Assembly (NCBI GenBank): GCA_044892525.1
Contig: CM097885.1
Location: 248,001-312,000 of the forward strand
Direction of reading: 5' to 3'
Length of the DNA: 64,000 bases
From: Schmidtea polychroa
Taxonomy: Eukaryota
Of the stretch, positions 17,956 through 44,269 are shown one piece after another. The notes beneath the pieces were generated by a model. It made no database searches, was not told where the DNA came from, and saw only the letters and a list, made by a program, of their open reading frames with translations. The translations under genes were made by a program, and so were the position numbers. Positions within the stretch are counted from its first letter, which is position 1. Every line of letters begins with the position of its first letter.

Positions 17956-18014
17956 ACTACTGATATACATTTAGTAATTTTACACACATTTATATACATC
18001 GCTTTTTGTCGGTT

Positions 18015-18722: not shown

Positions 18723-18883
18723 GTCTACAATATTTACAATTAATAGTGCGCTACAGTGCGGCTTATACTTATACATTTATAGGTAATTTTATATAATCAG
18801 GGTAAATATTTTTATCGTACTAATAATTTTTTGTTGGGATACAGGTCCCGATTTTTTATATATTTTATCTTTTCCATTTATCT

Positions 18884-19921: not shown

Positions 19922-20139
19922 CTTTGTCTAAATAACGATATCATTAACTCAACGTTGTACGCTTATATCTGGTTTATTATTTATTTATTTTTACAATTCG
20001 TTATAGGAGTTGTTTTAGAAGTTTTACGCTTAAGTTTACTTTTAGTAGATTTGGGGGATTTTTCTACACTACTATATAATGTTTTACGGGGTATATATGC
20101 CGATATTTACAATTAGTATATACAAAATTATTCGTCTCT

Positions 20140-21528: not shown

Positions 21529-21617
21529 TTCTATAATTATATATATACATATATTCGTTACTGGTACAGTTTCGTATTTTTATTTACAGTTATTTACATT
21601 GCTATTTTAGGTTATAT

Positions 21618-21977
21618 TTATTGGCTGGAAGAGTCGGCCTCTTGTCCGCCCTCTTCCCTACTGGTTAACCATTCTGACCAGTCTTCTATCTCCTCTCGCT
21701 CCATCTCTTCCGCGATTCTTATTAACTCCTCTTCTTGCACCTGGCTGTATCGTGATATTCGGTCTATCTCTCGCTGCATTTGTTCTATTTTTATTCGTTG
21801 GTCTTCGATTATTCTTACATAACTGAAGCCTTTATTTAAACTTTCGACTAAGCTTCTTTGTACAGCGAGTCCTTGTTCCTGTAAATTCGAAATCACTTGA
21901 GTTAACATTGCACATTGTTGTTTCCACATTTCCTCGGTTGTCGTACTGTGATTTACTTCCTCGCCTATTCGCTCCAT
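21618..21977 (-). CDS. Accessory ORF: small acidic coiled-coil protein
   Basis: Open frame between pol and TRAF; first ATG at 21977. Confidence 0.6.
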   Translation of the reverse strand: MERIGEEVNHSTTTEEMWKQQCAMLTQVISNLQEQGLAVQRSLVESLNKGFSYVRIIEDQRIKIEQMQREIDRISRYSQVQEEELIRIAEEMEREEIEDWSEWLTSREEGGQEADSSSQ

Positions 21978-22145
21978 TCTTAATTTATATATACTTTTCA
22001 ACCCTTATCCAATTTTATTTTTATATTATTTATCCCCATCGTTATATAATATTGATACCGCGGTTATATAAAAATATATCATACTGTTATATAAATAAAT
22101 ATTATCTACTTACTTTTTACAATCTATATACAGTCATAATCCTTT

Positions 22146-25100
22146 CTATATACGTGAGCTTGGAGGGCGCTGAGCATTCCAGGCCTCCACCCACTGTTCC
22201 TGCTTGATATTACTTGGTCGTTTTACATGATGTTGAAAATTTCTTATTCTGGCCATTTCTAGTTCTCCGCGATGCCGTCTATCTTTGATTATTTTTATTG
22301 TCCCCCCCGTTATGATTAAAAAGGCCCCTGTTATTATTATGCCGCTGATCCACATCATCTGTTTTACGCTTATAATTTCCGCTTTTTCCTTGTTCATTAT
22401 TGTTGATATTGCCTCTGTGCTTTTTAGATTACCGTCTTTGCCATTTCCTTTTATCATTCCTCGTATTCTTGCTATTTCCTCGTTCATACCTTCCTTTGCC
22501 ATTTTTTGTATTTTCTCCATCTCTTCCTCTGATACATAATTGACCTGATATTTCTCACCGGTTTTCTTGCGTTTTCCTTGCTCATCTTTTTCATCATTGA
22601 TTTTTCTTTTCTTCCCTCTTTTCCCAGGGTATCGTCGACATTCTCTTTCTGGACCGTTTCTCAGGATATAGACCGTATATTCCTTTGGTGGTTGTTGTTG
22701 CGTTACGTATTGTAGACAATTTTCTCCTGGTCCTAGCCTTGAAATACACACTTTGTGCTCTTTTCTTGGTTGAAGCTGTGTTATCACTATTTCACCTCCT
22801 TTACTTAGGTGTACCTCTTTCCATTTGACTTTTGTTATTTTCTTCCCGTTTCGATGTTGGTATGCTTCTTGTATTCCCACTTCCGTTATTGGTTCTGCAT
22901 CTTCATTTTTTAACACTAGTCTCTGATAAGCTCTAGACATACATCTTCCTAATATACACCTTTCTTTTAAATCCCATTCCTCTTTTAGATCCCATTGCTG
23001 CTCTTGTACTTGTTTTTTCTTTTCTTGTTTTAGTTCTTCCTCTTTGTTGTCCTTATTTTCCGTTTCTTTGGCTTCTTTTATCGTTCTCATTCCTCCCTGG
23101 GCTGTTATCATTTCCACCATTGTTAATACGAGTATCATTATCATCATATTTGTCTCCATTTCTTTGTTGGTAAAAAGTAGACATACCCTCTGTTTTCCAC
23201 TATTCGTCTTTTCTTCTTGCTTTATTCGGTTTCTCGGGTTATTTTCCTCTTTTTTCCTACTCGCGTCGTTATTTTCTTGATTATTCTCCTCTGATTTCTC
23301 TTTCTCTTTATTCCCGTTTCGACCTTTTTCGTTATTATCGTCGTCTTTATCGTCTTTATCTCCCCCGCTATCGTTTAAAATGTCGTCCTCGACATTTATA
23401 TCATTCAACAATCTGCGGTATGCCGTTAGCACTCTGTTTCTTGCTAATTTTGCTTCGAATTCGAACTCCTTTCTGCCTGTTGCTACATGTCTCTTTCTTT
23501 TCCATTCTTTCACTAATTCTCTTAATTGTATCCGACGATGTTTTCCGATTCGCTTTTGTTCGTTTAGATTCTGCGTGAATTTGAGATCTTCCCTGTTTAA
23601 TACGATCATTATGATTTTTGGAGTTCCTCCTTTTGTTAGTGTATTTTTAACCATAGCATTTTCTCCGTTTTCGTAAAACTCATTTATATTTATTGCATAT
23701 TTATTGCTTTGCGGTATTTTCCATGTTAACAATAACTTCATGGCTTCTAAGCTCATCCGTATCGTGTTCCATTGGAACTGCGACGTGTTTTTACAGATAT
23801 TTTCTACCTCAGTTCTTGTAGCATTTTTACAAATGAATCTAATCATTTCCAAGTTTGGTTGTATTGTTGCCCAATCCATGGCAGAATTTCCTTCGTTTGA
23901 TATTTCGTCAAGTCTCGAACCTGATTGATGTAGTATATGTAAGGTTTTCGGGTGTATCTTTGTTATTGCTGCATACATCATTGCTGTTTCTCCTTGTTCA
24001 TTTTTTGCATTAGATTCTTCTCCCAAGTCTCTAAGAATTCTTATGATGGTTATTGCTCTGTTTTCTTTTGCTGCTAAAATGGCTTGTTGTAATGGTGTTC
24101 TTGAATCTTTTGTTGGTAAGGTGAATGCTAGTGGTATAAATGCTTTTATTTTTCCTATGTCTAGATTTGTGGTCTGGTCTCTCGCGTAGGTGTGTACTGC
24201 TTTTGTTATTTTTGCTAGTATCGCTTCATCGGATAGATCTTGCATTTCTTCAAAGAATACTTCTTTAGCCTTACGTATTACTATCTCTTGGTCGGAGTTT
24301 ATTATCTTTGGTTTACTTGTTGTTGCTATATCGCTTATTATTTGATCGACTCGTTTCTCAGACTCTCTTACTGTTATTTTCTTGATTTTTATCTTTTTCT
24401 TGTTCGAACTGTTAATGCGTTCCTCTGCCGTTAGAACTTGAATAATACTTAGGTAAGTTTCTCGAATGTTATTCATATTTTCCATCATATATAATACACT
24501 CACGGTTTCCCAAAATTTTACTTGTACTTTATCGGTAAATTGAGATATAGCTTTTTCGAAGTCGGTAATTCGTTTTCTGATTAGTTGTTCGTCTTTGTGA
24601 TTTGAGAACTTTATGCCACGTTGTAGTAGTTGATTTGGAATTTCGAATAGGTGATGTCCTCTCATCGCTTCTCTCATCAAGGTGTTTTCTCCTTTGGTAA
24701 ATGTTTCGTTTATATCTACCATATAATCGTTTTTGATCGGGTTCCTCCATGCAATTAGTAATCCAGCAATTGTTATTAATTTCTCTTTGATTGCAGTTAA
24801 TAGCCCGTCATACATGTTTCCTATCTCCCTATTATCCTCGTATGATAATAGATCTACTAAGATTATGAAGGCTTTCGTACTTTTCCCTTCGATTGCATGA
24901 TGTAGTGCATTTTTCTGGTTGTCATCCTGTGTGGTTATCTTTGACCCAGTTTCAAGTAATGCGATAATAATATCTTTAGCTTTATCCCGATTGGCTGCTA
25001 TCATTAGTGGAGTGTAACCTTGGTTGTTTTCTTGATCCGTCGAAATGTTACAGTCGCGAAATGCTTCGATCGTTTCCAGTATTTGTTCATTATTCCCGAC

Positions 25101-28100
25101 CTTTAAAAGTTTGTGCAGCGGTGTATCTCCATAATGGTCTGTGATCGTAAATAATATAGGCCATTGACTTTTTACTACCCTGAGTAATGGGTGTGTTCTT
25201 TCTCGGTTTGCATAGTTTTCGATCATGGTTAGCAGACCTCCCAATATCTCAAAATCTAATCGGTCTTTTGCCCATCCGGGCATTTTAGCTTTCACTTCCT
25301 TTATGATTTTCTCGGCTTCTGATGGTTGTAACCCCAATCGGTTACCTGTTGGTTCGTTTATCTGCTGTAACATATTTATTCTATATGTTTGTGATCTTGT
25401 TGTTAATGTTCGCCCTTCCGGCTGGCTGGTGGCTGTTTTCGGTATTGGCTTACATCGTGCCACATTTACATATATTGGCCTCGTGAAGGGGTTGTTTACC
25501 AATCGTACTCTCACATTGGTTTCTCCGACGAATAAAATCTCATACGGACCTTTACCGTTTCGTTGTAATTTTTTGGTGGTTCCTGGAATTAATTCTGGTG
25601 TTTCGATCATCACCCAATCACCGGTTTGAAATGTATGTTGTTTAACGTTTTTCTTTCTATCATGCAGATCTTTGTAACTTTCCTGATAAAACTTTATATT
25701 TAATCCCGCAGTTTCCCAGATTTCTTGCATTCTTTCCTTGAACTTGGTTACATAATCGTCTATTTCCATGTATTGTGATATTGGTGGCTGATATTCTAAA
25801 TCCATTGGCATATTGCATTCTCTGCCGTACATCAACTTAAACGGACTCATCTTTGTGGACGCGTGAATCGACATTCTGTAAGCCATTAAACATAATTTTA
25901 TATACTCGTCCCAGTCGCGTTGATGGCGATCGACGTAATTTGATAACATTTGAATCAGTGTTCCATTGAATCTTTCTGTCATACCATTAGTTTGTGGATG
26001 GTACGGTGATGTTCTTAATTTTGCGATCTTGAAGTAGTTGGTGACTTCGCTCATTATTTCACTCATGAAGTTTGTTCCTTGATCAGTTAATATCTGTTTT
26101 GGTGTTCCATATCGACAGCATATCTCCTCTACTAGTATTTTTGCGATTGTTCTTGCTTTCTGATCTGCCATAGCGAATGCTTCGGGGAATTTTGTCAAAT
26201 AATCTGTGATTACCAATATATATATATATATATTCCCTCTATCTGATTCTGGTAGTGGACCGACTACGTCCATTGATATCACTGTCATTGGTTCTGCTGG
26301 TACTGGCATTGGCTTTAATGGTGCCTTCCATTTTGTTCCCGTGTTTTTTCTGGTTGCGCAGGTTATGCAATTTTTCACCCATTCCGTTACATCCTCGGTC
26401 AATGTAGGCCAGAAGTATTTTTGTTTCATTCGTGCCAACGTCTTTTTAGATGACATATGTCCTCCGAGTCTTCCGTCATGGTATTGTGTTAGCAGATCTT
26501 TACGTCTATTCTCGGGAATGCACATCAGTCTTTTCTCGCCATCCATTATCAATAACCAATCTTTCTCTATTATATATCGATGTCGATGTTTATCCATGTG
26601 CTCTTTCAATTTTTGATCTTTCTCATATACCTCTACTTTCCCTGTTTTCACATATTCAATGATTTGCTTCAACTCTGTATCCTCTTGTTGGTCTTTCCGT
26701 AATTGGCAAAAATCTAAATCTTCCGCCACCATCAGACATATTCGTTGCATTTCGTGATCTACTAAATCTGGAAAGATAAATCTTGACATACAATCTGCAT
26801 TGGCATTCGCTCTTCCCGCTTTGAATTTTATGAACGGTGAATATTCTTGTAACTGCATTGCCCATCGCATCAATCTACTTGAAGCTTCTTTGTGTTGGCC
26901 AAGCCATACTAGTGGTTGATGATCTGTTGTGATACATATTTCGTGTCCCCATAACAAATATCGAAAATGTTTAATCGCTTGTATAATTGCTAACGCTTCT
27001 CTCTCGGTTACGGAATAGTTTTTCTCATGCTTTTTAAACGTTCTGCTGTAGTATCCAATCACTCTTTCTTTTCCTTCTTCATCCAGTTGTCCTAATATTG
27101 CTCCGGCTGCATATCCACTTGCATCTGTTGCTAATAAGAACGGTTTCTTGAAATCAGGATGTACCAGTATTGGGGCTTCAATTAATTTATCTCGCAATGT
27201 CTCAAATGCTTTTTGTTGTTCTGCACCCCAAATAAATGAAATATCCTTTTTCACTAATTCCTGTATTGGTTTCGCAATACCTGCATAGTTTTTGATGAAT
27301 TTTCGATAATATCCGCATAATCCGAGAAATTCTTGAACTTGGGTGACAGTTTTTGGTGCTGGACATGTTTTTATTTTTTCTATGTTTCTTGGATCTGGTT
27401 CTTTGCCTTTTGCTGACACTATGTGTCCTAAGAACGTAACTTTTTCTTTTGCCCAATCACACTTTGATGGTTTGAGTTTCAATTTCCATTGTCGTAATCG
27501 AACGAACACGTTTCTGATATCTTCCAAATGTTGTTCGAATGTTGCTGAATATATTAATAAATCATCAATATATACCATGCACTGCTTGATCCCGTGCGTG
27601 ACGAAATTCATACATCTCTGAAATGATGCTGGGGCATTGGTCAGTCCAAATGGCATTTTCCTGAATTGATACAGGTCTCGACCCAACGTGAAGGCCGTTT
27701 TCTCCTTGTCTTCCTCTTTAACTTTGATCTGCCAATATCCGCTTTTTAGATCTAAAGACGTAAAATATGCGGCCCCTTGCAGCATAAGTAACATCTCATT
27801 GATGTCTGGTAACGGGTATGTGTCTCTTTTTGTTACTGCATTTAGTTTCCGATAATCGATACAGAATCTCTGGGTACCGTCTTTTTTCTTCACCATGACT
27901 ACTGGAAATTGCCATGGCGAACAACTTGGTTCGATCACTTGTGCATCTAGCATTTTTTGTACTTCTGCTTCGGCTATCTCTTTTTGCTTCTCTGCTAGTT
28001 TGTATGGACGTAGTGCGATTGGAGTTTCGTCTATTAATGGTATTGCGTGTAATGTAACATCGCATGCTCCCAAATCTAAGTCCGAAATAGCGAATATATC

Positions 28101-29945
28101 TTTATATTCTATCAATAATTGTTGAAGTCTTTCTTTTTCCTTTTCCGTTAGCAATGTGCTATCGATTGTCCATAATTCGTCAGCTTTCGTTGTTTCATTG
28201 GTGATTTTTGGTAATTCGATGTCTATCATGGGTGTCAATCTACCCAATCTTTCATTTTCATATATGATCTTGTCTTCTTCCTCGAAATTTGTGATGTTAA
28301 TTGGTATTTCCCCTTCGTCATTAATTGTTATTATTTCTCTTGCTAATGGTAATTCTCGTCGTTTTTCGAATGATTTGCTTGGCTCAAAAATGGCTTCTCC
28401 TTCCATTCCTGCATCCACTTTTATTTGACATATCATCTGGGATTTTGCTGGTACAATTATTTTCTCCGGACATCTGATTATTGCGTTCATTTTGCATATT
28501 CTACCCATTTTATCTTTTAGGCACATTGTTGTTAGATCTATTACTACTTCTTTGAACAATTCCGGCATTAAATCCGTTCCGATTATACATGGTTCACTCA
28601 GTTTGGGTATCACCGCCAGATACGTTTCAATTTCATTATCTTGATATCGTAACGTAGTCCACCATCTTCCTACTACGTCTACGGTTTCTTTACTGCATGC
28701 AATAATATGGATAGTTGTTTGTTCGATGTCTTTCCAACATTTACTGGGTATTTGGTTTATTGCTATTGCTGATACATTTGCTCCGGTATCTATCATTGCG
28801 CTTGTCTCTTTCCCGTTGATTTGGATCATGACTGTTACTGCCGCGCCTCCTGGTGAACTCATTACTGCTATTGTTCTGACGTCATCCGCTTGGTCTACAC
28901 TTTTCGTTCTTCGGGTCGGCATATAGTTCATACCTGGTTGACTTGGTAACTGTGGATACATATTTTGTGTCATGGTCAAAGCTGTTTGTTGTCCAACGAT
29001 ATCTGGTGGTATATAACTTCCGTTGGCTATCCAGGTATTCGTTTTTTCTTTCTCCCAAAATGGTGCTGTTTCTATTGGCTTTTCATTCGGGTTTCTACTT
29101 GGATATGGATATTTGTCATTCCCATTGTCGTCATCATCACTATCGCTGCTGTTTGATCGATTTCTAAATCTGTCTAAAAATTTTGGTTTGTTCTTTTTCA
29201 GTTGTGTCCTTGTTGCTTCATCATACATTGTTTTCCGAAATCGTCTACCGACTTCCTCGTCAGTCCCTTTTATTTTTGTCAGTATTTTTATTAATCGTTT
29301 TATTCTGTGTATATCTTTAGAATGACCGTGTAACACCATTGTTTTTGCCAAAAATGGTAGAAAACCTACTATCAACTTCCAATTTACTTTCTTTTCTCTC
29401 TTATAGATATCGAAACACGCTAACATTTGAGTCAATATTACTCTGACAATCTGAATAATTAAGATGATTCCCAGTATTCCTGCCATCATTTGACCGAACA
29501 CTAGAAATCTTCCCCACATTGCTTTCATCATGTTTGACGTGGCTTGTTGAAAATGATCGGGTGACAATAATAGTTCGTAATTGGGACCTGATTGGAAATT
29601 CGTTCCCCCAGTTATGGTAACCATATTTGATAGAATGGATTCTCGCCTTGCTGGGAATAGTACGTTTAGTCGTGCCGTTTCTAAATCCTCTGCTGAGTAC
29701 ATACCTGCTTTTGACACATCAATTGGTTTGAAATCTTGCTCCGTTGCGAGTTCTATTAATCCAAACTTTTTAGGCTCTTGTACTTCGGTTTTTACCGGTA
29801 ACATTATCCATTTCCCATCGGGTTTTTCATATAACGGTCCGTATGCATTTGAACAGTTGAAGGTGTTCGGATAAAATCCAATTGGGTTCATAATTCTAGT
29901 GACGGGTTGAACGAATCTGTTTTGCCCTTTGTAACTAATTTCCAA
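22146..29945 (-). CDS. pol: Polyprotein part 2: Env C-terminus/TM - aspartic protease - RT - RNase H - integrase - ankyrin repeats - C-terminal membrane protein
   Basis: IDTGA (28782-28790), YIDD (27561-27572), TDASG..YSVTEREALA..TDH, HHCC + D,D,E + GPY. Ankyrin motifs (GDTPLH, GYTPLMIAA, KNALHHAI, RTPLQQAI, GETAMMYAA, GNSAMDWA) at ~23600-25170. Hydrophobic segments at ~23100-23147 and ~22290-22357. Confidence 0.95.
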   Translation of the reverse strand: MEISYKGQNRFVQPVTRIMNPIGFYPNTFNCSNAYGPLYEKPDGKWIMLPVKTEVQEPKKFGLIELATEQDFKPIDVSKAGMYSAEDLETARLNVLFPARRESILSNMVTITGGTNFQSGPNYELLLSPDHFQQATSNMMKAMWGRFLVFGQMMAGILGIILIIQIVRVILTQMLACFDIYKREKKVNWKLIVGFLPFLAKTMVLHGHSKDIHRIKRLIKILTKIKGTDEEVGRRFRKTMYDEATRTQLKKNKPKFLDRFRNRSNSSDSDDDDNGNDKYPYPSRNPNEKPIETAPFWEKEKTNTWIANGSYIPPDIVGQQTALTMTQNMYPQLPSQPGMNYMPTRRTKSVDQADDVRTIAVMSSPGGAAVTVMIQINGKETSAMIDTGANVSAIAINQIPSKCWKDIEQTTIHIIACSKETVDVVGRWWTTLRYQDNEIETYLAVIPKLSEPCIIGTDLMPELFKEVVIDLTTMCLKDKMGRICKMNAIIRCPEKIIVPAKSQMICQIKVDAGMEGEAIFEPSKSFEKRRELPLAREIITINDEGEIPINITNFEEEDKIIYENERLGRLTPMIDIELPKITNETTKADELWTIDSTLLTEKEKERLQQLLIEYKDIFAISDLDLGACDVTLHAIPLIDETPIALRPYKLAEKQKEIAEAEVQKMLDAQVIEPSCSPWQFPVVMVKKKDGTQRFCIDYRKLNAVTKRDTYPLPDINEMLLMLQGAAYFTSLDLKSGYWQIKVKEEDKEKTAFTLGRDLYQFRKMPFGLTNAPASFQRCMNFVTHGIKQCMVYIDDLLIYSATFEQHLEDIRNVFVRLRQWKLKLKPSKCDWAKEKVTFLGHIVSAKGKEPDPRNIEKIKTCPAPKTVTQVQEFLGLCGYYRKFIKNYAGIAKPIQELVKKDISFIWGAEQQKAFETLRDKLIEAPILVHPDFKKPFLLATDASGYAAGAILGQLDEEGKERVIGYYSRTFKKHEKNYSVTEREALAIIQAIKHFRYLLWGHEICITTDHQPLVWLGQHKEASSRLMRWAMQLQEYSPFIKFKAGRANANADCMSRFIFPDLVDHEMQRICLMVAEDLDFCQLRKDQQEDTELKQIIEYVKTGKVEVYEKDQKLKEHMDKHRHRYIIEKDWLLIMDGEKRLMCIPENRRKDLLTQYHDGRLGGHMSSKKTLARMKQKYFWPTLTEDVTEWVKNCITCATRKNTGTKWKAPLKPMPVPAEPMTVISMDVVGPLPESDRGNIYIYILVITDYLTKFPEAFAMADQKARTIAKILVEEICCRYGTPKQILTDQGTNFMSEIMSEVTNYFKIAKLRTSPYHPQTNGMTERFNGTLIQMLSNYVDRHQRDWDEYIKLCLMAYRMSIHASTKMSPFKLMYGRECNMPMDLEYQPPISQYMEIDDYVTKFKERMQEIWETAGLNIKFYQESYKDLHDRKKNVKQHTFQTGDWVMIETPELIPGTTKKLQRNGKGPYEILFVGETNVRVRLVNNPFTRPIYVNVARCKPIPKTATSQPEGRTLTTRSQTYRINMLQQINEPTGNRLGLQPSEAEKIIKEVKAKMPGWAKDRLDFEILGGLLTMIENYANRERTHPLLRVVKSQWPILFTITDHYGDTPLHKLLKVGNNEQILETIEAFRDCNISTDQENNQGYTPLMIAANRDKAKDIIIALLETGSKITTQDDNQKNALHHAIEGKSTKAFIILVDLLSYEDNREIGNMYDGLLTAIKEKLITIAGLLIAWRNPIKNDYMVDINETFTKGENTLMREAMRGHHLFEIPNQLLQRGIKFSNHKDEQLIRKRITDFEKAISQFTDKVQVKFWETVSVLYMMENMNNIRETYLSIIQVLTAEERINSSNKKKIKIKKITVRESEKRVDQIISDIATTSKPKIINSDQEIVIRKAKEVFFEEMQDLSDEAILAKITKAVHTYARDQTTNLDIGKIKAFIPLAFTLPTKDSRTPLQQAILAAKENRAITIIRILRDLGEESNAKNEQGETAMMYAAITKIHPKTLHILHQSGSRLDEISNEGNSAMDWATIQPNLEMIRFICKNATRTEVENICKNTSQFQWNTIRMSLEAMKLLLTWKIPQSNKYAININEFYENGENAMVKNTLTKGGTPKIIMIVLNREDLKFTQNLNEQKRIGKHRRIQLRELVKEWKRKRHVATGRKEFEFEAKLARNRVLTAYRRLLNDINVEDDILNDSGGDKDDKDDDNNEKGRNGNKEKEKSEENNQENNDASRKKEENNPRNRIKQEEKTNSGKQRVCLLFTNKEMETNMMIMILVLTMVEMITAQGGMRTIKEAKETENKDNKEEELKQEKKKQVQEQQWDLKEEWDLKERCILGRCMSRAYQRLVLKNEDAEPITEVGIQEAYQHRNGKKITKVKWKEVHLSKGGEIVITQLQPRKEHKVCISRLGPGENCLQYVTQQQPPKEYTVYILRNGPERECRRYPGKRGKKRKINDEKDEQGKRKKTGEKYQVNYVSEEEMEKIQKMAKEGMNEEIARIRGMIKGNGKDGNLKSTEAISTIMNKEKAEIISVKQMMWISGIIITGAFLIITGGTIKIIKDRRHRGELEMARIRNFQHHVKRPSNIKQEQWVEAWNAQRPPSSRI

Positions 29946-32900
29946 CTCGTTTGCGCATTTCCCTGGTGGTATTGTGGGTTTTCTTGGCAGTCGCGCAAAC
30001 GTCTTGGTACATACATTACCTCTCCCACCATTCTACCAAAATGTCCATCCGGTAACGGGAGTGATGGCATTGTGTTATCTGGGTGTGTTATTGCGATGGC
30101 TAATTTTGTTTTTAGTATCTCTTTATTCAATGAACAGTCATTTTGTATAAGATCGTAGTATACTTTTTGCATTGTCGTTTGTCCTCGATGAAATAAAAAG
30201 TCCATTTTGTTGTTGGCATAAAGGTACAACTTCACGTCCTCCGTTGATACTTTTCCTACTGCTCGGTCTATTACTTGCCTTGACATGTAGATACCTGCGT
30301 AGTTCGTCCGATATACTATGCTGTCACATTCGGTGGTCTCTTTTTCTCTGATGAATCTCATACCGATATCTGGATCATCTGTAATTAATGCCGTTGGTGT
30401 TTTTTGTGTTGTGAGTCTCTTTTCTTTGGGGGATGGTGGAACTGGTTTCCCATTTCGCATCCTTACGTTTCCATTCTCTTCATCGTCATCCTCGTTTTCG
30501 TAAATTTCTCCTTTTACTTCATTGAATAGAGCACTTTTTAACAATTGGAGTCGGCATTTTTGGGTGTTAGCTTCATATATTATAGTCGAAATTCCCGTTC
30601 TACACACGTTTTCCGTAGCTCTGCATGCTGGGTTGGTTTTCATTTGATAGTTGTTTGCGTCGAATTGTGCTTCGTATTCCTTCAACTCCACTGTGTAGGA
30701 CTCAATTACTACTACTCCCGAGATCACTTCTCCTCTGATCGTATATGTGCCTCCGTTACATGATCCATCAGTTGATTTTACTCGTCCGGCTACATAGATA
30801 CTTTCCGTCTTGATCATTCCGCTTTGTCCGTGTATTGTTACTCCATCCCTGATTCTCATCGCTCCGGTTCTAAAAAGCTCTTTACAGTCTTCCCGTTGTA
30901 TAGGTACTATTTCTTTATCTAATCCAGGTAATATGAGAGTTGAATACGAATATTGTCCACAGTAATATGCCAACACTTTCTTCGATACTACGCATTCTCT
31001 AGCTTGCGTCCTAATGAAATCTGATTCTTGGTATACGTGATAGGAGACTTTCTTTTTTACTATATCTAATTTATTCGGAGATGCCTGTCTACATTCCTCT
31101 ATATCTCTCAGGGAGTATCTTTCTCCTATTATTGAATTGTCACAGTCGTAAATTGTAAATCCAGCTGCTCCACTGGTGCAGAGCATCCATATCATCATGG
31201 TCATCATTAGTGAATTAATCGACGCTTTTCTGCTGGCTGGGTCTTTCAATGGCAATTCCCATTCCAGTTCGTTTAGCAATTTCTTCAACCGAATTTGCAT
31301 CGATCTCTCTTGCTCGTTTTTTCGTGGCGCTTGTATGAGTCTTTTCCACCCACCGGCACGGATAATATGTGGTTCGATTGTATTTTCAATGATTGTAACG
31401 GTCATTTCTACATGATTTGCGAATTGTTTGTTAGGTATTTTCCTTGCTGCTAATCCCATCAAATTGTACATTAGATACGTTAATACTACTAAATGATGTT
31501 CGTCGTCGTTTGCGTTTAAAGTTAATTGTTCAATTACCCTTCTTGTCTCTTCCCAATCGGTTTTAGTGGTTTTTGTCTTCTCTTTGATTAATTTCGGAAT
31601 TATTCCGGATATTGTATTCCATAGCTGTCTGGCATCTACGCTTGCTACTTTTCGTTGCCATAACCGTCGCAATTGTGGGTTCGTTATTATTAGCATATCT
31701 TTTACTAGCTCTCGTATCCATTTTTCGCCTCTTTCGATTGTTGGCTGGGCCTCTTTCAGATCCCACACTATTTTATCCAGTTTCTTCAATCTGACTTGTC
31801 CTTGTTCTTGTTTCAGTTGTTCTCTGGTTTTAAATTCTGGTTTTTCTCCTTGCTTCTTGGGTCTTCCTTTTGCCCGTTTCTCCATCATTGTTCCAGCTTC
31901 TCTTGTCGTTTCATAATTCGGGTTTCTCTCGTTATCTGTTCTTGGCAATGAGCTATCGTTGTTTCTCAGCCACTCATTCCATTCGTCTATTATTTTGTCC
32001 GTTTGACCTTCTGGTGTTGCTTTCGTCGGTCCTTTTGGTCGTTGGAATTGTTCGTCGGTTTCGGTTTCTGTTGTATTATCGATAATTTCCTCTATGTTCA
32101 GCTTATTTGGTTGTTGATAGCTAGTTGACGGTTGGCTTGTTGTCCATATTTCGGCTCCTGTCGGCCATCTTACCAGAATTGGTGATCTTTCTCCAGCTCC
32201 TTCATCGCTGTCTTCTAATATGATTTCCTCGATTTCCTCGGTTTCATTCGATTTACTCGCCACTTTGTTAGGGCTTGGTGTACTCAAGCTACCTTTCGTA
32301 GTTTTGCTGGATTTGCTCTTCCTTTTAATCGGTTTTCCCAATGTTTCTGCCATTGTCAATACATTGATCTCCCCCAATCTCATGGGTGTTATTCCGACAT
32401 CTGCATTATCATCTAACGATTTTCCGAATAGTTGTAGGTGAAATGGAGTTTCGTATGCTAACTTCTTTTTTAACTCTCTGATCTTTGTTGTTGGATGTAC
32501 TTCTATATCCTCAATGCTTTTGTCGGGATACTTGACTCGGATACGATACCTTTCCTGGGTATCTTGTGCCCATTCTTGGTTTCTCCATTTCCTAATAATT
32601 TGTTCTAGCTGTTCTGGGTACCATTCGTTATATTGTCGGTATTCCTCAATCGCTTTCGCCATTTCTCTTAGATTGTGGATATTCTCTGATGTCTTTAGGA
32701 TGATGTTAGCCAATGCTACTACTTGTCGTTTTTGATTTTTTGTTCCCGTTGCTAAGATGTCACCTAATTGTTTATATCTTTCCTTCTCTTCTCGTTCTCG
32801 AGCTTCCATCGCTTCTTCGCTGTCCATATCGGCATATTCGCGTTCCTTCTTTCTCATCGCATGAATATGTCTGGTTTCCGTTTCACTTTCGGACGTGACG

Positions 32901-35900
32901 TCCGTTTCGCTTTCCTCGTCCGATACCGGTTCTTTCTCTTCCTCTTCGTATTTTGGAGGTTCGTCTTCCTCTTCTTCTGATTTACTTTCGGTCTCGCCAA
33001 TGTCTGTTTCTACGAAAATTCCTTTCCTGACTTCCCACTCTTTATTTTCCGCATTCCACATCCTTTCCCAGGGAGTTCGTCTGCAAGATCTAGTACTTAG
33101 TTTCTTTATTTTTCCTTGTAGTTCCTTTTCCTTTAACCACTGTTGATGAATTTCAATTATCTCTACTGATTTTTGGTATAGCGTTTTCATCCTGTCCCGT
33201 ATCTCTTTCTGGTAGGTTACATCTCTTGTTCGGAATTCGTCCATGGGCAATATTCTAATTATTTGATGATTATCCCACATTCCCATTTCGCTTAACGATG
33301 TGTCGTCTTCAGCCCGTAATATTATTTTATCGTACATCATGACTACATCATCTATCATCCCGTCGCTACTCTCGCTTCGTACTTTTTCCGTTATCTCTTG
33401 GTTTATCTTGGTTACTAAGTCATCCACCGTACTCTGATTACTCATCTTTATTCGTCGTTTCTCCTCGTTTGGTAACCATATGGTTATTTCTAATTTCTGC
33501 GGTTGCGTTTCTTTTAATCTTCCGTATTTGTGGATCAAATTTATGGTTCTCCAATCGCTCATCCTGAGCAATTCTGTATCTCGTAATCGGCTCATTAGTT
33601 CATGCATATCTGGAGTTCGTCTTGCTATGAGTAAATCCCAGTTATCTTCGACTTGTTCTTGAATTTGTTTGATTAGTTTATCTAGATTCCGCCTTAAAGT
33701 GCATTGTTTTATTTGTTCCAATTTCAGCTTGATATTGAAATCGTATTCAGCCTTGGCGTCTTTAGCCCATTCATGAACATTAGTTGGTTGCTTCTCTTTA
33801 TGCAACTTCAATATTTGAGTTTCTCCTGGCCAGATCAATGCATCTATTAGGTGCATGTCTGGCTTAATTTGTTCTCCTTGGTATTGATATAAATACTCTT
33901 TCTTTCTCGAGCTGCCCAAATGTTCTCTTATCCAATCGAAAAGATCGTCTGTAACTGTATTTTTTATCCATATTCTCTCGAGTCCTTTACTCGTTCCGAT
34001 TTTATTACGTATTTTTTCCATATACTTCTTTATTATCGCTTTCTCCTCGCTTGGTATTAAATCTTTTTCGTTTCTTTCCAGTTTCATTATCTTTTGTATG
34101 AAGCGTCTGTATGGTATGATGTCAATGAAATCCTGGTTTCTTACCACCACTGGAAGTATTTCTTTTACTTGTTTTATCGCCTCTTCTTTTTCCTTTCTCA
34201 GTTTCATCTCGATATTCTCATCTTCACTTTCGCTTGCCACATCGCTTTCACTTTTCTCCTCATCTTCTCCGATCTTTTTCTTTAGTTGTTCGATATTTTC
34301 ATTTAACTGCAATATTTCTCCACCCAGGCTACTCACATTATCCTCATCGTCATCTGTTGACAATACCTTCTTTGTCGTCCTCATCATATTAATTCGTAAA
34401 TTCCTCATCCTTGGTACTTTCTTTAGCTTCTGGTTCTCGAATATCGTTAGCTCCTCTGAGTCTAATTCTTGTATCATATTATGATTTAGATGATTAATCT
34501 GCTTCTCATTTTCGTTATTTTCCGCTTCTACTCCGGTTTTGATTTTCTCGTGTTCCTTTTCGATTTTATCTTTTATCTTTTTCCAGAATATTTTCTGAAT
34601 TCTCTGATTCCCTTTTAATGGTGTTGTTGGGTTTTCCTTTTTCGCTTCTGTAATCGTTTCTTTCGGTGTCTCTGGTTCGATCAATGGGACTACTCTTGGA
34701 TTTTTCCCGTAATTGTAACAATATTGCTCTTTTATCTCCTTTACCATCCTCATCATATTTATTCGTAATGGTTGTTCTTGTCGCTGCTGAATTCGCTCTC
34801 TTTTTATTCTCTCTTCCTCAGCTTGTAGTCTCTGCCATTCTTGTGCATGTTGTTGTACTTCATAATTGTTAAGATTCTCGGTGCTCCTCATCAGGCGTAT
34901 ATTCTGAGTTTGTTGTGGTACTGGTTCTTGTCTTGGCCTCATCATTTGTTGCATCATTTGTTTCATTTGAGAAATTTCTTGCATCACATTCATTTGTTTT
35001 CCCTCACTGGGGTTACTTTGTCGTTGCGGATTTGGTGCATAATTATTGTTTCGTTGTGGTGGTCGTTGTTGTTGGCCCCTTTCTCGGCAATCTCTTGAGA
35101 TGTGACCTGGCTGACCGCAGTTAAAGCATCCTCTCAACTGGCATATATTTTCCGTGTGTCCTCGTCGTCCGCATCTATTACAATTTGCGTTTCGGTAACA
35201 ATCTCTGTACCAATGTCCTGGTTTACCGCATGTTCGGCATTGTTTGTTATCGTTCGTATTTCGTCGATTATTAAAATTATTTCCATTGTTCGAGTTGTTG
35301 CGTTCGCTGTTATTCCCGTTTGATCGTCCTTGCGGTGGTTTGAAAATTTGATGCGCACCTGGTATAAACTGATTCATCTTCGGTTCATGATTATTGTTAT
35401 CTCCATTTTCTGTTTTCGCCGTAGCTGCTGCGATTCTTCCCTCCTCTTGCATGACATTCATTTGTGCCGGGAGGTGTAGTTCGCATCTTGTGGCCCAATC
35501 TATGGCCTCCTCTAGTGTTTTACACATCTGACATCCCACCGAGGCTCTTACCTCTTCCCGGCGTAGTCCTTCTATGAAATAACCAATTAGGTTCTCTTCC
35601 GGCAAGTTTCCGTTCATGGCCTTCGTTGCCAATCTTCGCAATTCGCTTGCGTATAACGTTATTGATTCATTGGCTCTTTGTTTTCTACTCGCTAATTCTC
35701 CTAGGGCTTGATTTATTGGTTTGCTGGCCCCGAATGTTTTTCTCAAAAATGTTTTGATGTTTTCCCAATTGTCTAATTTCGTATTTCTTTCTTTTGCTTC
35801 TAGATACACTTCGAGTGCGCTATCGCACAAAAACAGAGGCATTCGTTTACTAATTGCTTCCGCTGTCCATCCGCACACATCGATATAGACTTCAAAATTT

Positions 35901-35992
35901 GTTATGAACGTTGCCAACTTGTTCGCATTCCCGTTAAACGGTTCGCCTCTAAATTTTTCTTTATACTCGTCGGTTTTTACCACATTCATCAT
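29888..35992 (-). CDS. gag: Polyprotein part 1: Gag (capsid, 3 CCHC knuckles) - ubiquitin-like domains - Bcl-2-like domain - envelope glycoprotein ectodomain
   Basis: Retrotransposon capsid motifs (PFNG..F..F..GW..L..SA..W..F..RKQ..ESI..Y..FIEGL) and three CX2CX4HX4C at 35087-35239. The frame stays open without an ATG up to ~36415. Env-like part starts after the hydrophobic MMTMMIWMLCTSGAAG at 31207. Confidence 0.9.
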   Translation of the reverse strand: MMNVVKTDEYKEKFRGEPFNGNANKLATFITNFEVYIDVCGWTAEAISKRMPLFLCDSALEVYLEAKERNTKLDNWENIKTFLRKTFGASKPINQALGELASRKQRANESITLYASELRRLATKAMNGNLPEENLIGYFIEGLRREEVRASVGCQMCKTLEEAIDWATRCELHLPAQMNVMQEEGRIAAATAKTENGDNNNHEPKMNQFIPGAHQIFKPPQGRSNGNNSERNNSNNGNNFNNRRNTNDNKQCRTCGKPGHWYRDCYRNANCNRCGRRGHTENICQLRGCFNCGQPGHISRDCRERGQQQRPPQRNNNYAPNPQRQSNPSEGKQMNVMQEISQMKQMMQQMMRPRQEPVPQQTQNIRLMRSTENLNNYEVQQHAQEWQRLQAEEERIKRERIQQRQEQPLRINMMRMVKEIKEQYCYNYGKNPRVVPLIEPETPKETITEAKKENPTTPLKGNQRIQKIFWKKIKDKIEKEHEKIKTGVEAENNENEKQINHLNHNMIQELDSEELTIFENQKLKKVPRMRNLRINMMRTTKKVLSTDDDEDNVSSLGGEILQLNENIEQLKKKIGEDEEKSESDVASESEDENIEMKLRKEKEEAIKQVKEILPVVVRNQDFIDIIPYRRFIQKIMKLERNEKDLIPSEEKAIIKKYMEKIRNKIGTSKGLERIWIKNTVTDDLFDWIREHLGSSRKKEYLYQYQGEQIKPDMHLIDALIWPGETQILKLHKEKQPTNVHEWAKDAKAEYDFNIKLKLEQIKQCTLRRNLDKLIKQIQEQVEDNWDLLIARRTPDMHELMSRLRDTELLRMSDWRTINLIHKYGRLKETQPQKLEITIWLPNEEKRRIKMSNQSTVDDLVTKINQEITEKVRSESSDGMIDDVVMMYDKIILRAEDDTSLSEMGMWDNHQIIRILPMDEFRTRDVTYQKEIRDRMKTLYQKSVEIIEIHQQWLKEKELQGKIKKLSTRSCRRTPWERMWNAENKEWEVRKGIFVETDIGETESKSEEEEDEPPKYEEEEKEPVSDEESETDVTSESETETRHIHAMRKKEREYADMDSEEAMEAREREEKERYKQLGDILATGTKNQKRQVVALANIILKTSENIHNLREMAKAIEEYRQYNEWYPEQLEQIIRKWRNQEWAQDTQERYRIRVKYPDKSIEDIEVHPTTKIRELKKKLAYETPFHLQLFGKSLDDNADVGITPMRLGEINVLTMAETLGKPIKRKSKSSKTTKGSLSTPSPNKVASKSNETEEIEEIILEDSDEGAGERSPILVRWPTGAEIWTTSQPSTSYQQPNKLNIEEIIDNTTETETDEQFQRPKGPTKATPEGQTDKIIDEWNEWLRNNDSSLPRTDNERNPNYETTREAGTMMEKRAKGRPKKQGEKPEFKTREQLKQEQGQVRLKKLDKIVWDLKEAQPTIERGEKWIRELVKDMLIITNPQLRRLWQRKVASVDARQLWNTISGIIPKLIKEKTKTTKTDWEETRRVIEQLTLNANDDEHHLVVLTYLMYNLMGLAARKIPNKQFANHVEMTVTIIENTIEPHIIRAGGWKRLIQAPRKNEQERSMQIRLKKLLNELEWELPLKDPASRKASINSLMMTMMIWMLCTSGAAGFTIYDCDNSIIGERYSLRDIEECRQASPNKLDIVKKKVSYHVYQESDFIRTQARECVVSKKVLAYYCGQYSYSTLILPGLDKEIVPIQREDCKELFRTGAMRIRDGVTIHGQSGMIKTESIYVAGRVKSTDGSCNGGTYTIRGEVISGVVVIESYTVELKEYEAQFDANNYQMKTNPACRATENVCRTGISTIIYEANTQKCRLQLLKSALFNEVKGEIYENEDDDEENGNVRMRNGKPVPPSPKEKRLTTQKTPTALITDDPDIGMRFIREKETTECDSIVYRTNYAGIYMSRQVIDRAVGKVSTEDVKLYLYANNKMDFLFHRGQTTMQKVYYDLIQNDCSLNKEILKTKLAIAITHPDNTMPSLPLPDGHFGRMVGEVMYVPRRLRDCQENPQYHQGNAQTSWKLVTKGKTDSFNPSLEL

Positions 35993-37270
35993 GACTGGTT
36001 CTTGTAACTCTATTGTTTCTTTTAAATTTTCCAGCGGTGTCGCTAAATTATGGACGGATAATTCTTCTGTTGACCCGGTTAGGTTGTTTGATATATCGGA
36101 TAGGCTTTCTCTGCTTCTAGATCGACTAGGGGTGTATCCGAGGTTTTCTTGGTCAAATGTTGGTACTTGATTTGTTCTTTTTGCTCCTTGTGATCTTCCT
36201 CTTTGCTGTTTTATGGATCGTCCTCTTCTGAGCTGTTCTAGTTCGTCTCCTGAAATTAATACGTCTCTCGACTTACTTGAGGATCTGAGATTCAGTTTCT
36301 CCGTGGTTCCTTTATACGCCTCTCTATCGTCTCTTAAGGGTTTCTCGGCAATTATCGGCTGCTGACTTGAGCGAATTCGGTTTTGTCGGTGTTCCGAGTC
36401 CTTGGCAATTGGTTGTTAGCGTTATGAGACGTCTTCCGTTCTTGGAATCTTCGGGTTGTGTTACTCCTACTGAGCGGGTTCTGGATTGGTTATTTCTAGT
36501 TGGTCGTTGATTTCTTCGAATTCCTTTGTGCAGGTTCTGGATTGGCTTGATTGACTGGATTGGTTTGGTATCTAAAATGAAAAAATGATCTCGTGTTGCA
36601 TCTGCTCACACGACTTCATCATTCTTTCTTCAACATTCAAACACAGACACCGTTTAGGGCCTCTGTTATACTTCTCCTTATTTCCCCATACAATTTCTCG
36701 TGGATTATAGTCACCCATCAACCCATAGTTTTCGTCGATTTTAAATTATCTATTTAGGGTAGTAATAATTATCTATATGGTCGTATGAATCATCTATAAT
36801 TATCATTTATAATATCGATAGGTCGTTGTCAGTTACTGCTTATCACCCCCCATATTCTCTTAATCCTTTTACGCGGTTCCGCTATTTTACTTAATCTTTC
36901 GTCTCTGTTCCCCTTCACTCGGTTCTACTCTGAACCAAAAAAAAAAAAAAAATCGGATTCGTTTATCCGGTTTAAACCAAAATTCTGTAGACTTTTGTCT
37001 ACTTACTTGGGATCCCCTTTAATTAATTAATTACCTTCCTTTTTACTCGTCATTTATTCCCACTTATTCTCTACTTTTACTATCTCTTCAATTCATTTTC
37101 CTTTTCTGATTCTCCTTTTCTACTAAAAGGGTTTTACTTTCATCTTCTACGAGCTCGTTTAATCCTTTCTAAATTCGACTTCTCGTATCCCAATTCAATT
37201 TGTTTCTAGCTAGCTTAATATTCTATCTCATTATCAACTTAAATATTATCCAATCATTTTCTAGGCCTTT

Positions 37271-37625
37271 ACGACTGGCTGGCACTTTTCAACAGCTCAA
37301 TCTTCTTCCTTCTGACCGGTTGGACTATTCGACAACTCGATCTTACGACTGGCTGGCACTATTCAACAGCTCAATCTTCTTCCTTCTGACCGGTTGGACT
37401 ATTCGACAACTCGATCTTACGACTGGCTGGCACTATTCAACAGCTCAATCTTCTTCCTCTCCAAACTGGCTGGACTTTTCACAGCTCAGTTTTTAATTTT
37501 TTTTCCTGACCGGCTGGACTTCTCGACAGCTCGGCCTTAATATCTCCCGACTGGCTGGACTTTTCACAGCTCAGTTTCAATTTCCCTGGCCGGCGGGACT
37601 ATTCAACAGCTCGGCCTTAATATCT
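37271..37625. repeat. Tandem repeat in the 5' leader (74-bp unit built from ~35-39 bp subunits)
   Basis: ACGACTGGCTGGCAC.. recurs at 37271, 37345 and 37419; degenerate (C/T)GGCTGGAC..TTC.ACAGCTC subunits continue to ~37625. Confidence 0.9.
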
Positions 37626-38198
37626 TCGACTCTGCATGCTGCTATCTTTTCTTTACCTTTATTCTAGACTGTCATCTCTCCTTTTATTTTTACTTTTTAT
37701 TTGTCGATCTAATCTGTGCCGCTTGAGAATGTTTCCCCTTTCCCCCCTTGCTCAAAACGCAAAACGATCGCATTGATCCATTTCTACATTGGTATGGTGA
37801 TCAGTCATACCGCAGAAACTTTTCAATATTCGCGATGGTACCTCGCCTTACATCTCTTACTCGGGGTGATCGGTTATCCCTTCCCAACCGGTTTTCGTGT
37901 ATCGTACCTCCCGAAGGTGGCTCGGTTTATTCCCCCTTTACTCCTATGTTGGGACTAGCTCCACTTTATTTTATTTGTTCAAATTAAATTTATAGATGCT
38001 CTCTCTCTATGGTGAAAATTATCATAAAGTTACTGAATTCACAATAAAATGAACACGCAAAACATTCTATTCATTAGTTGGCTTAAATCACATGCAATAT
38101 ACAAATTTACTAGAAAATTGTTGATACATCAATTAAATATAAAGGATTTAGTCAAATCGTCAATCAGATCAATTCTTTCACCGAGTGCTGCTCGCGTG

Positions 38199-38678
38199 TT
38201 AACTGAAGTAAATCGTGTGCTTCTCCTTTATTGCACATACACATAAAGAACAATGCGTTAAACTGACGGCGCATTCGTCGCAATGGCTAAGGTGTCCACA
38301 AGGTAGCATTAGAATTCTGGCAGGTCGCGTCTTACAAATGTTACAAGTTCTCAAGGCCGCTGCTTTTTCTATTATCGAGGTTCGTATTCTCTGAGATAGA
38401 GTTTTTACTTGTTCGCGTATTTTCACATATTCGAGGTTCAGAGCGGGGTCGTCGAGTCGTTGCTGCATCCATTGGTAATGGACAGACAAGTCGGTGTCGG
38501 TATTTGTTGACCCCAATCTGTCGGTTAGAAAGTTTTGTTTGGATATCAGCGGTGCGTTGTGGCGTTGTTGCTCTAGGGTTTCTATTTGTTGCAGTTTTTC
38601 TCTTAACGTCTTTATGGAATCGTTTTCTATGTCGACGAACCGGCTTAGTCGTTGTAGATGTTTCCTAGCTTCTGACAT
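38199..38678 (-). CDS. Coiled-coil + C-terminal IAP-type RING finger protein, upstream of gag
   Basis: CNIC..ARILMLPCGHLSHCDECAVSLTHCSLC..IKEKHTIYFS* matches the C-terminal RING layout and aromatic tail of IAP-like ligases; no BIR domain; acceptor TTTTTTAG 2 nt before the ATG. Confidence 0.85.
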   Translation of the reverse strand: MSEARKHLQRLSRFVDIENDSIKTLREKLQQIETLEQQRHNAPLISKQNFLTDRLGSTNTDTDLSVHYQWMQQRLDDPALNLEYVKIREQVKTLSQRIRTSIIEKAAALRTCNICKTRPARILMLPCGHLSHCDECAVSLTHCSLCVCAIKEKHTIYFS

Positions 38679-39087
38679 ATCTAAAAAAGTATGTTGTCAT
38701 TACTCGGTCTCACTTATAAAAATAAAAATAATATTATCGTGTTATAATCAATGTTCGTTTGGCTTTGTTCGCTATTGTTTCTAGTTTATGTATTTTATTC
38801 AATCTCTAATAATTCTTTTTTAATTTAATTCATTTAAAATTAAACAAAATTAGTCAATTCCCATTTTCTCTTCTCTTCATATTCAATCACATTCATTCAA
38901 ACTTATTTAGGTTCGTTTTTGTTCATAGCATGTTCTATTTTACGCAAAGACAGTTCGCATCATCATCTTAATACACTATAATATCAATTCATTTCAGTCC
39001 CGATTCCCTTTTTTATTATAATTAATTAAATTGTTAGTCTAACACATCGTAATACAGTAATAGGCAATCAAACAATTCGAAATCACA

Positions 39088-39105
39088 ATCCCGGCTGAGC
39101 CCCCA
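39088..39105 (-). promoter_or_regulatory. Primer binding site complementary to tRNA-Pro 3' end
   Basis: Minus strand TGGGGGCTCAGCCGGGAT, 16/18 identical to the classical tRNA-Pro PBS TGGGGGCTCGTCCGGGAT; 7 nt from the 5' LTR. Confidence 0.85.
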
Positions 39106-39112
39106 AAAATCA

Positions 39113-42100: not shown

Positions 42101-42807
42101 TTCTCAACTGGATTCGATCTCGACTATTATCTGCCTCTAAGTAATATCTGTTATGTCCAAGTATGAATATTGTTCGTAAGTCTGTGCTCGTGAGTGGTTC
42201 CTAGCTTAGTCCTGTAGAGTTTCGGGTTAGAATGATAATTTTAAATAAATTTTACCTGTAGAGTTTCGGGTTAGAATGATACTCTACAGAGTTTTGTTGC
42301 TCTTTATATATATTTTTCCGTCCAATCAGGACACACCTTGCTTGTAATTTTGTTATTTATTATTATTTTATGTTTTTTCTTATCGTAGTATATTATATTT
42401 TAATGACCCTACCTATTTCTATTATTGTTTTATTTATTTTCTTATTTTTTATTATTTTTCTCCTATTTTTTTGTGGTTTTATTGCTATTTTATTGTAACT
42501 TCATTTTTTGTTTTAATTAACCTTATGGATGATTTTATTTTTATTTTGTTTTCCTTTAGTTTTCGTTTGTTTTTCTTAAATTTTGTGCCATTTTATTTCT
42601 CTTTTACTGTTGTGCTCATTGGGTGCCTTCCCTTTTGTCTTATTTCCCCTTTACAGGTTTTGTTATTTTATTTAGTTATTCTTGTTTCTTTATGGATGTT
42701 TAATTTGTTTCTTCCTATGTTTCTCGTAATTTTTATATGTTTTTATTTTATTTACTCTATCTCTTCCTGGGTTCGTTTTTCCAACACCTTCAGAGCTTGG
42801 CCCAACA
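39113..42807 (-). repeat. 5' LTR (3695 bp; 550 bp shorter than the 3' LTR)
   Basis: Direct repeat of 12796-17040 lacking 13518-14068; adjacent to the PBS. Confidence 0.97.
42211..42330 (-). promoter_or_regulatory. Putative LTR core promoter and first mini-intron (same in the 3' LTR at ~16443-16562)
   Basis: CCAAT box (42322-42326), minus-strand TATATAAAG (~42303-42313), Inr-like TCATTC ~30 nt downstream, then a 44-nt GT..AG segment (42255-42212). Confidence 0.5.
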
Positions 42808-43120
42808 GTCCTATCCTAATCCCCCTACCTTTTTTACCCCAAGTTATTTTATTTATGATACTATTCATTATTTAGGTATCTTCATCAATATTATTGTTTA
42901 GTAATTATAATATAATAAATTCTTTCGGGTTTTCCTAATTTAATTTTCTTTTAGATATCTTTTTGGCATTATATTTATTAAAAGCTTGACCATCCGAAGT
43001 GGTTTTTGGCGCGTTTAAAAAGTCCCCTTATTTGTTTTATTTTTAATTGTCTTGTCCCTTATTTTTGCCTTCCTGTGGATGCTGCTGTGTGAGCTGTACG
43101 ACTGAAAATGACAATAAATA

Positions 43121-44067: not shown

Positions 44068-44269
<202 letters not shown>

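Follow-up and report, generated by a model that had tools for sequence, protein, structure and literature searches.

What is a helical segment with the marks of the Bcl-2 family doing in the middle of a retroelement polyprotein, and does the resemblance reflect common descent? The question is raised by a 64,000-nucleotide (nt) stretch of the planarian Schmidtea polychroa (NCBI GenBank assembly GCA_044892525.1, contig CM097885.1, forward-strand positions 248,001 to 312,000; hereafter the window, with positions counted from its first letter). On its minus strand, at 12796-42807, the window carries a long terminal repeat (LTR) retroelement of 30,012 bp, which contains the segment within its first long open reading frame (ORF1). 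By its features, this carrier is a giant, virus-like element of the Ty3/gypsy type, similar to the planarian Burro elements. Sequence comparisons lead us to regard the segment as a strongly diverged Bcl-2-family domain by ancestry, with a probability of roughly 80 to 85%. That it acts as an inhibitor of cell death by binding Bcl-2 homology 3 (BH3) motifs is a proposal to which we give about even odds.

A preliminary description of the window had placed a Bcl-2-like, all-helical domain at 31335-31770, and the three strings that it quoted can all be read from the minus strand, in frame with the ORF at 35992..29888, in a stretch with 7-8 predicted helices: TRRVIEQLTL (ORF1 amino acids (aa) 1483-1492, 31517-31546), HHLVVLTYLMYNL (aa 1499-1511, 31460-31498), and TIIENTIEPHIIRAGGWKRL (aa 1533-1552, 31337-31396). 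Its span does cover aa 1408-1552 of that frame but is 1-2 nt off the codon boundaries, and for this reason a literal translation of it gives stops. The segment and its immediate surroundings comprise the following parts:

31748..31870, minus strand: a basic KGRPKK motif and an extra N-terminal helix preceding the core (by eye; helix 16-41 of model 1, below)
31328..31744, minus strand: core of the Bcl-2-like helical domain, ORF1 aa 1417-1555 (Pfam, profile searches, AlphaFold)
31493..31510, minus strand: the BH1-equivalent NDDEHH, aa 1495-1500, with DDEH where canonical proteins have NWGR (alignment A3, below)
31442..31495, minus strand: predicted central hydrophobic helix, equivalent to alpha5, HLVVLTYLMYNLMGLAAR (hydropathy; a helix in both models)
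31346..31378, minus strand: BH2-like motif IEPHIIRAGGW, aa 1539-1549 (A3; alignment with Bcl-xL)
31223..31327, minus strand: linker of 35 aa leading from the domain to the Env signal peptide (ORF1 translation)
31157..31222, minus strand: SINSLMMTMMIWMLCTSGAAGF, a hydrophobic stretch read by eye as the Env signal peptide, which might also anchor the upstream product in a membrane (hydropathy)

Of all 17-aa windows in the 2034-aa ORF1, the predicted central helix (HLVVLTYLMYNLMGLAA) is the most hydrophobic (Kyte-Doolittle 1.44), and SINSLMMTMMIWMLCTSGAAGF is the second most hydrophobic stretch. The domain lies about 1070 aa downstream of the zinc knuckles of Gag, and about 42 aa separate the GGW of its BH2-like motif from the Env signal peptide that follows.

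The sole Pfam match of a 247-aa piece carrying the segment at E ≤ 10 is to the Bcl-2-family profile PF00452 (E 0.047, 14.7 bits), spanning profile positions 35-100, up to the end of BH2. A PF00452 scan of the source genome, in which 150 of 909 candidates were scored, returned short canonical ORFs with up to 68 bits, together with many matches of 28-30 bits situated in open frames of up to 3090 aa. Fifteen of these 28-30-bit loci were fetched, and they identified a second family of elements, hereafter the sister family, whose domain reads ...VLKILFTTGVNRDKVITAMAYL...MPWIKLKGGWKIL. It is placed after a ubiquitin-like stretch and the string RRGRGRPRK, and before a signal peptide and a clearly homologous Env start. 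As a protein, the sister domain scores 27.1 bits against PF00452 (E 6.4e-6), likewise below the gathering cut-off of 31.4 bits. The window element and the sister family are colinear through the domain in BLASTP (E 6e-21, 27% over 320 aa; for the domain alone, E 0.003, 24% over 129 aa). Because the two domains stand at the same place and the alignment is colinear, we group the window's diverged domain with its better-scoring sister.

Profiles extend this observed relationship to the canonical family. A profile of eight element-only sequences (A1; four per family, the window's included), searched against 177,635 distinct PDB sequences, has nothing but Bcl-xL constructs in its top 51 rows (E 0.028-0.13); the Bcl-2 family as a whole accounts for 55 of the 60 matches listed. 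The alignment with Bcl-xL is in register from the BH1 position, where the canonical NWGR is visible in the Bcl-xL row, to EPWIQENGGW, with which EPHIIRAGGW is paired such that GGW and P are kept and the first W is replaced by H. Comparison in hhalign of A1 with a profile of six canonical Bcl-2-like ORFs of the source genome (A4) gave a probability of 90.2% (E 1.5e-6, 67 columns), and a hidden Markov model (HMM) of A1, run on 279 frames, retrieved the canonical ORF L042 with E 1.4e-6. Three canonical ORFs recruited via the A1 profile (E 1.4e-6 to 3.5e-4) were added to yield a trimmed 11-sequence alignment (A3), which was preferred to a MAFFT alignment including L044 (A2) that had a 13-column gap in the BH1 region. 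In A3, the helix KWIRELVKDML is matched to the canonical alpha1 helices, and the P, G, and W of the BH2-like motif are invariant over all 11 sequences (GGW at aa 1546-1548 in the window), in keeping with the fit to BH2 noted in the preliminary description. The A3 profile matches Bcl-xL at E 1.8e-7; since A3 holds canonical Bcl-2-like ORFs, neither this match nor the structural model derived from A3 is independent of the Bcl-2 idea.

Could the segment instead be an unrelated helical spacer, whose GGW and other matches arose by chance or convergence? We consider this unlikely in light of two controls. The A4 HMM scores 17.8 bits on the real segment, a value reached by 0 of 2000 shuffles (best shuffle, 13.7 bits), and when a 187-aa window is slid over both polyprotein ORFs (72 positions), the top scores of 15.3-17.9 bits belong to the three positions overlapping the segment, the next having 6.2. 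The profile-profile probability of 90%, the in-register alignment with canonical ORFs from alpha1 to BH2, a sister family that falls just short of the Pfam cut-off, and PDB sequence and Foldseek lists headed by the Bcl-2 family only also speak against a spacer.

With the 217-aa segment as query, an exhaustive phmmer search of 1.84 billion representative proteins gave no matches. The ESM Atlas yielded no usable match, and no RNA data set appeared among the sequencing runs listed. A word-indexed search of 5.8 billion proteins, with the segment and with the 2034-aa ORF, recovered a single entry, P0002, a 1497-aa Gag-bearing fragment with 57% identity that ends inside the domain and is in none of the alignments. 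As its best match in the genome is only 56-59% identical, P0002 lies outside the families found there.

The predicted fold points only weakly to the Bcl-2 family. AlphaFold gave eight helices for model 1, based on A1 with no canonical sequence (187 aa), and seven for model 2, based on A3 (145 aa). When these were compared with the PDB using Foldseek, Bcl-2-family structures filled all 39 rows listed for model 1 (E 8.8e-3 to 6.6e-2; template-modelling score on target 0.40-0.52) and all 38 listed for model 2 (E 0.014-0.11); in BFVD, ranks 1-4 for model 1 went to viral Bcl-2 homologs by name (E 0.09-0.4). The check by AlphaFold and Foldseek that the preliminary description had proposed thus returned only the Bcl-2 family in the PDB rows listed, at E 0.009-0.11 and with a predicted local distance difference test (pLDDT) score of 57.9-61.2. 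These comparisons constitute weak evidence for the Bcl-2 reading, and the fold prediction by itself does not decide the case. Of the divergent viral-type Bcl-2 fold postulated earlier, as a putative inhibitor of apoptosis or innate signaling, the family homology stands, on the Pfam match, the sister family, the profiles, and the Burro annotation as given in PMC6431247; the fold itself is a prediction of low confidence.

Several results weigh against a Bcl-2 ancestry and a canonical function. The window segment, with its 14.7 bits, is below the PF00452 cut-off. The 51 Bcl-xL rows all come from constructs of a single protein, with marginal E-values, and so amount to one marginal match, the expected one. 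The window family taken alone reaches only 49% in hhalign with A4 (E 1.7e-4, 41 columns), an HMM made from it found no canonical ORF among the 279 frames, and phmmer with the 217-aa segment did not find the sister-family frames at E ≤ 10. Both structural models are of low confidence (model 1, pLDDT 57.9 and predicted template-modelling score 0.54; model 2, 61.2 and 0.48), and Foldseek against the PDB produced no match at E ≤ 0.001 for either, with root-mean-square deviations of 6-11 Å. A BH3 motif of the L...GDE type was not seen by eye at aa 1440-1475, where no formal motif scan was made. Finally, NWGR is replaced by DDEH.

This last point, also made in the preliminary description and upheld by A3, concerns a motif whose arginine contacts the aspartate of BH3. 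The BH1 position reads DDEH in the window element, NRDK in the sister family, and RWSR in the canonical ORF L042. The loss of the motif favors a variant in which a domain of Bcl-2 fold binds no BH3 ligand and blocks innate or NF-kB-type signaling in the manner of certain poxvirus proteins; of these, A52, B14, K7, and N1 have the Bcl-2 fold and act through TRAF6, IRAK2, or IKK. An ORF with RING and TRAF-like MATH domains, a further RING ORF, and ankyrin repeats in the same element would suit such interference. Overall, we regard this signaling role as fairly unlikely. A pro-death or pore-forming counterpart of Bax or Bak, which would permeabilize membranes late for particle release, seems very improbable to us: no BH3 motif was seen by eye, and an element maintained in hundreds of copies by a germline or stem-cell lineage would more likely spare its cell. 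The sequence matches themselves do not separate pro-death from anti-death members.

For the death inhibitor that we favor, the arrangement of the polyprotein suggests a possible route to the membrane. The hydrophobic segment about 42 aa after GGW, i.e., the Env signal peptide, is a candidate C-terminal anchor for the domain. The polyprotein would be translated in the cytosol until this signal peptide brings the chain to the endoplasmic reticulum (ER), where cleavage would leave an upstream product ending in a hydrophobic segment. The Bcl-2-like domain would then be located on the cytosolic face of the membrane, like the tail-anchored cellular Bcl-2 proteins, and could hold host pro-death relatives, either Bak/Bax-like or BH3-only, so that the producing cell survives. 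It might act alongside the RING, TRAF-like, ubiquitin-like, and ankyrin modules of the element.

More speculatively, the Env signal peptide might double as the domain's tail anchor, with one cleavage releasing a membrane-tethered Gag-ubiquitin-like-Bcl-2 product at the ER and tying particle assembly to the suppression of death, which would make the element a retrovirus-like agent with a set of host-manipulation genes. We hold this extended version to be doubtful. If true, such a gene set (Bcl-2-like, RING, TRAF-like, ankyrin, and ubiquitin-like) would recall those of large DNA viruses, where such sets are otherwise found.

Strong purifying selection acts on the domain. Between subfamilies of the window element, it differs at 2-19% of nucleotides versus 0-7% of residues, with synonymous divergence (dS) of 0.54-3.5, nonsynonymous divergence (dN) of 0.018-0.053, and a dN/dS ratio (omega) of 0.01-0.04; a comparison of the two subgroups of the sister family gives an omega of 0.10-0.14. 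Third codon positions account for 79/104, 56/72, 40/53, and 12/13 of the nucleotide differences. These values and the equal constraint on the flanks show that the whole polyprotein, including the domain, was kept working through many rounds of copying. A special constraint on the domain alone was ruled out: the ratio of nonsynonymous to synonymous differences per site (pN/pS) is 0.03-0.08 in all parts, the flanking linkers and Env being as low as the domain. A comparison of the window's 30800-33370 with L079, L081, and L076 shows the subfamilies of this element to be near saturation in synonymous differences (pS 0.5-0.85) and 93-97% identical in protein, even in the linkers, a pattern indicative of lineages that have long evolved independently with their protein closely constrained.

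That selection does not single out the domain would also fit a Bcl-2-derived module with a purely structural job, such as attachment of the Gag side to membranes or the biogenesis and assembly of Env at the ER, with no role in death. Both element families keep the domain immediately ahead of the Env signal peptide, and its hairpin region is very hydrophobic; either observation is consistent with such a job. The retained GGW and P, typical of functional Bcl-2 proteins, are better explained by Bcl-2-type activity; to our knowledge, there is no precedent for a Bcl-2-derived domain in this capacity, and we consider it quite improbable.

We now turn to the element as a whole. It is bounded by direct repeats at 12793-17040 and 39110-42807 that are 99.6-99.8% identical to each other (blastn), and its limits at 12796 and 42807 were set by LTRs starting with TG and ending with CA and by a 4-bp GTCC repeat on both flanks. 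Its features, in the order of its own orientation, are:

12792..42811, minus strand: the whole element with its 4-bp flanking repeats GTCC (LTR ends and flanks)
39113..42807, minus strand: 5' LTR in element orientation (blastn, TG...CA ends)
38199..38678, minus strand: upstream accessory ORF of 159 aa with a C-terminal RING, zf-C3HC4_3 (PF13920, E 1.7e-8)
29888..35992, minus strand: ORF1, 2034 aa, with Gag, zinc knuckles, two ubiquitin-like stretches, the Bcl-2-like domain, and the N-terminal part of Env (ORF list, Pfam)
30012..30012, minus strand: site at which the window copy is without 10 nt found in three other copies, L004, L010, and L015 (comparison with these copies)
22146..29945, minus strand: ORF2, 2599 aa, with the remainder of Env (aa 4-182), protease, reverse transcriptase, RNase H, integrase, and ankyrin repeats (aa 1624-2037) (Pfam)
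20140..21528, minus strand: downstream accessory ORF of 462 aa with RING and MATH (TRAF-like) domains (PF22486 and PF21355, E about 8e-25; zf-C3HC4, E 9.5e-5)
12796..17040, minus strand: 3' LTR, with 551 extra nt at 13518-14068 (blastn, repeat ends)

Within ORF1, Pfam places Retrotrans_gag at aa 52-145 and CCHC zinc knuckles at aa 251-265 and 287-303, with a third at about aa 268-284 recognized by eye, and from aa 1594 a viral fusion glycoprotein of the Monjiviricetes type (PF24664, E 7e-36). The division between ORF1 and ORF2 in the window copy results from the 10 nt missing at about 30012; other copies have a single Gag-Env-Pol frame of up to 4811 aa. The domain therefore belongs to a Gag-Env-Pol product rather than to Gag proper, and the earlier placement within a Gag polyprotein was right as to the polyprotein and incomplete as to its extent.

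The 781-Mb, AT-rich source genome, assembled with four chromosome-size contigs, yielded 913 candidates for the 217-aa segment; the 150 copies scored are 93-100% identical, 143 of these 150 are free of stops over the 217-aa stretch, and many are embedded in open frames of 4731-4811 aa.

The two ubiquitin-like stretches of ORF1 lie upstream of the Bcl-2-like domain at about 33233-33493 and 32342-32551 (minus strand) and have weak Pfam support (PI3K_rbd, E 0.014; ubiquitin, E 0.039), as does the sister-family equivalent (Rad60-SLD, E 0.035). Directly before the domain, KGRPKK in the window (31853-31870, minus strand) faces RRGRGRPRK in the sister family (about 700-740 of locus L061), with GRP.K conserved in both families; by eye this basic motif resembles an AT-hook, which is of note given the AT-rich genome. 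Between the TRAF-like ORF and the 3' LTR, at 17296-19921 (minus strand), are ORFs of 224, 253, and 345 aa with no Pfam match at E ≤ 0.01. The 551 additional nt of the 3' LTR are GC-rich and have no counterpart in the element's 5' LTR; they are spanned by a minus-strand ORF of 254 aa (13338..14102) with no Pfam match. About 1.2 kb outside the 5' LTR, at 43995-44324, is a tandem array with a period of 9-15 nt.

How does this element relate to what has been described in planarians? Burro elements are giant gypsy-like LTR retrotransposons of Schmidtea mediterranea, longer than 30 kb and present in thousands of copies, with three CCHC knuckles in Gag, an env in frame between gag and pol whose product has matches to mononegavirus glycoproteins, a BCL2-like motif between a SUMO-like motif and env, and ankyrin, MATH/TRAF, BIR, and RING motifs (Arkhipova and Yushenova, 2019, PMC6431247). 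The account of the BCL2-like motif there credits it to Grohme et al., 2018 and calls for experiments. Burro elements of more than 30 kb are elsewhere named as a feature of the S. mediterranea genome (PMC11410931).

In the terms of these published descriptions, the window element has in common with Burro a length of about 30 kb, long LTRs, the three CCHC knuckles, an in-frame env between gag and pol with Env homology of the mononegavirus type, a ubiquitin/SUMO-like stretch and then the Bcl-2-like motif directly before env, the ankyrin, MATH/TRAF, and RING modules, copy numbers from the hundreds into the thousands, and an AT-rich genome of about 780 Mb with four chromosome-size contigs. The two differ in that MATH is part of the polyprotein in Burro-1/GYPSM1 and is encoded by a separate downstream ORF in the window copy, and in that neither BIR nor dUTPase has a Pfam match at E ≤ 0.01 among the ORFs of the window element. 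Judged by these features against the published account, the window element probably belongs to the Burro family, for which both the existence and the position of the domain are already in print (PMC6431247); the case in the window is a rediscovery. A literature search returned no study of the domain's function or structure; among its results, only PMC6431247 describes the motif.

The window domain resembles the cellular pro-survival proteins Bcl-xL, Bcl-2, Mcl-1, and A1 in its predicted order of helices and central hydrophobic helix, in the P..I...GGW of the BH2 region, in having a helix like alpha1, and in being followed by a hydrophobic segment. Unlike these free proteins of 20-30 kDa, it is embedded in a polyprotein that reaches 4811 aa, lacks NWGR, and has a Pfam score far below the cut-off, and the hydrophobic segment that follows it is the signal peptide of the next domain. 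The viral Bcl-2 proteins (BHRF1, KSHV Bcl-2, A179L, ORFV125, and those of adintoviruses and iridoviruses) are products of separate genes of DNA viruses, whereas here the domain is housed in the polyprotein of a reverse-transcribing element.

The source genome holds further Bcl-2-like loci apart from the two element families. One multi-copy locus (L053) combines a 144-aa Bcl-2-family ORF (1405-1836, minus strand), which has a hydrophobic tail and is above the PF00452 cut-off at 32.7 bits, with a 149-aa ORF (2542-2988, plus strand) bearing a TBP domain (PF00352, E 1.9e-14). It has similar copies in L054-L058 and at least eight near-identical copies, and may be a further element, mobile or virus-like, that carries a Bcl-2 gene of its own. 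In a second multi-copy Bcl-2-like gene (L046-L051, L059, and L060; match at about 1501-1810 of the locus), an in-frame TAG falls in a T-rich, short-intron-like stretch of about 50 nt just before BH2; 33 rows with one or two in-frame TAG codons occur among the 150 scored of 909. The best-scoring canonical Bcl-2 ORF (68 bits) is present in seven copies (L031-L037) in a cluster of about 0.9 Mb at 89.95-90.83 Mb of contig C4.

To the published motif, the present analysis adds the grouping of the window's strongly diverged domain with its higher-scoring counterpart in the sister family, evidence of strong purifying selection, and the Env signal peptide as a candidate membrane anchor. A regulator of cell death within the polyprotein of a reverse-transcribing element is unusual, and its presence suggests that these 30-kb elements may control the survival of the planarian cells in which they are expressed.

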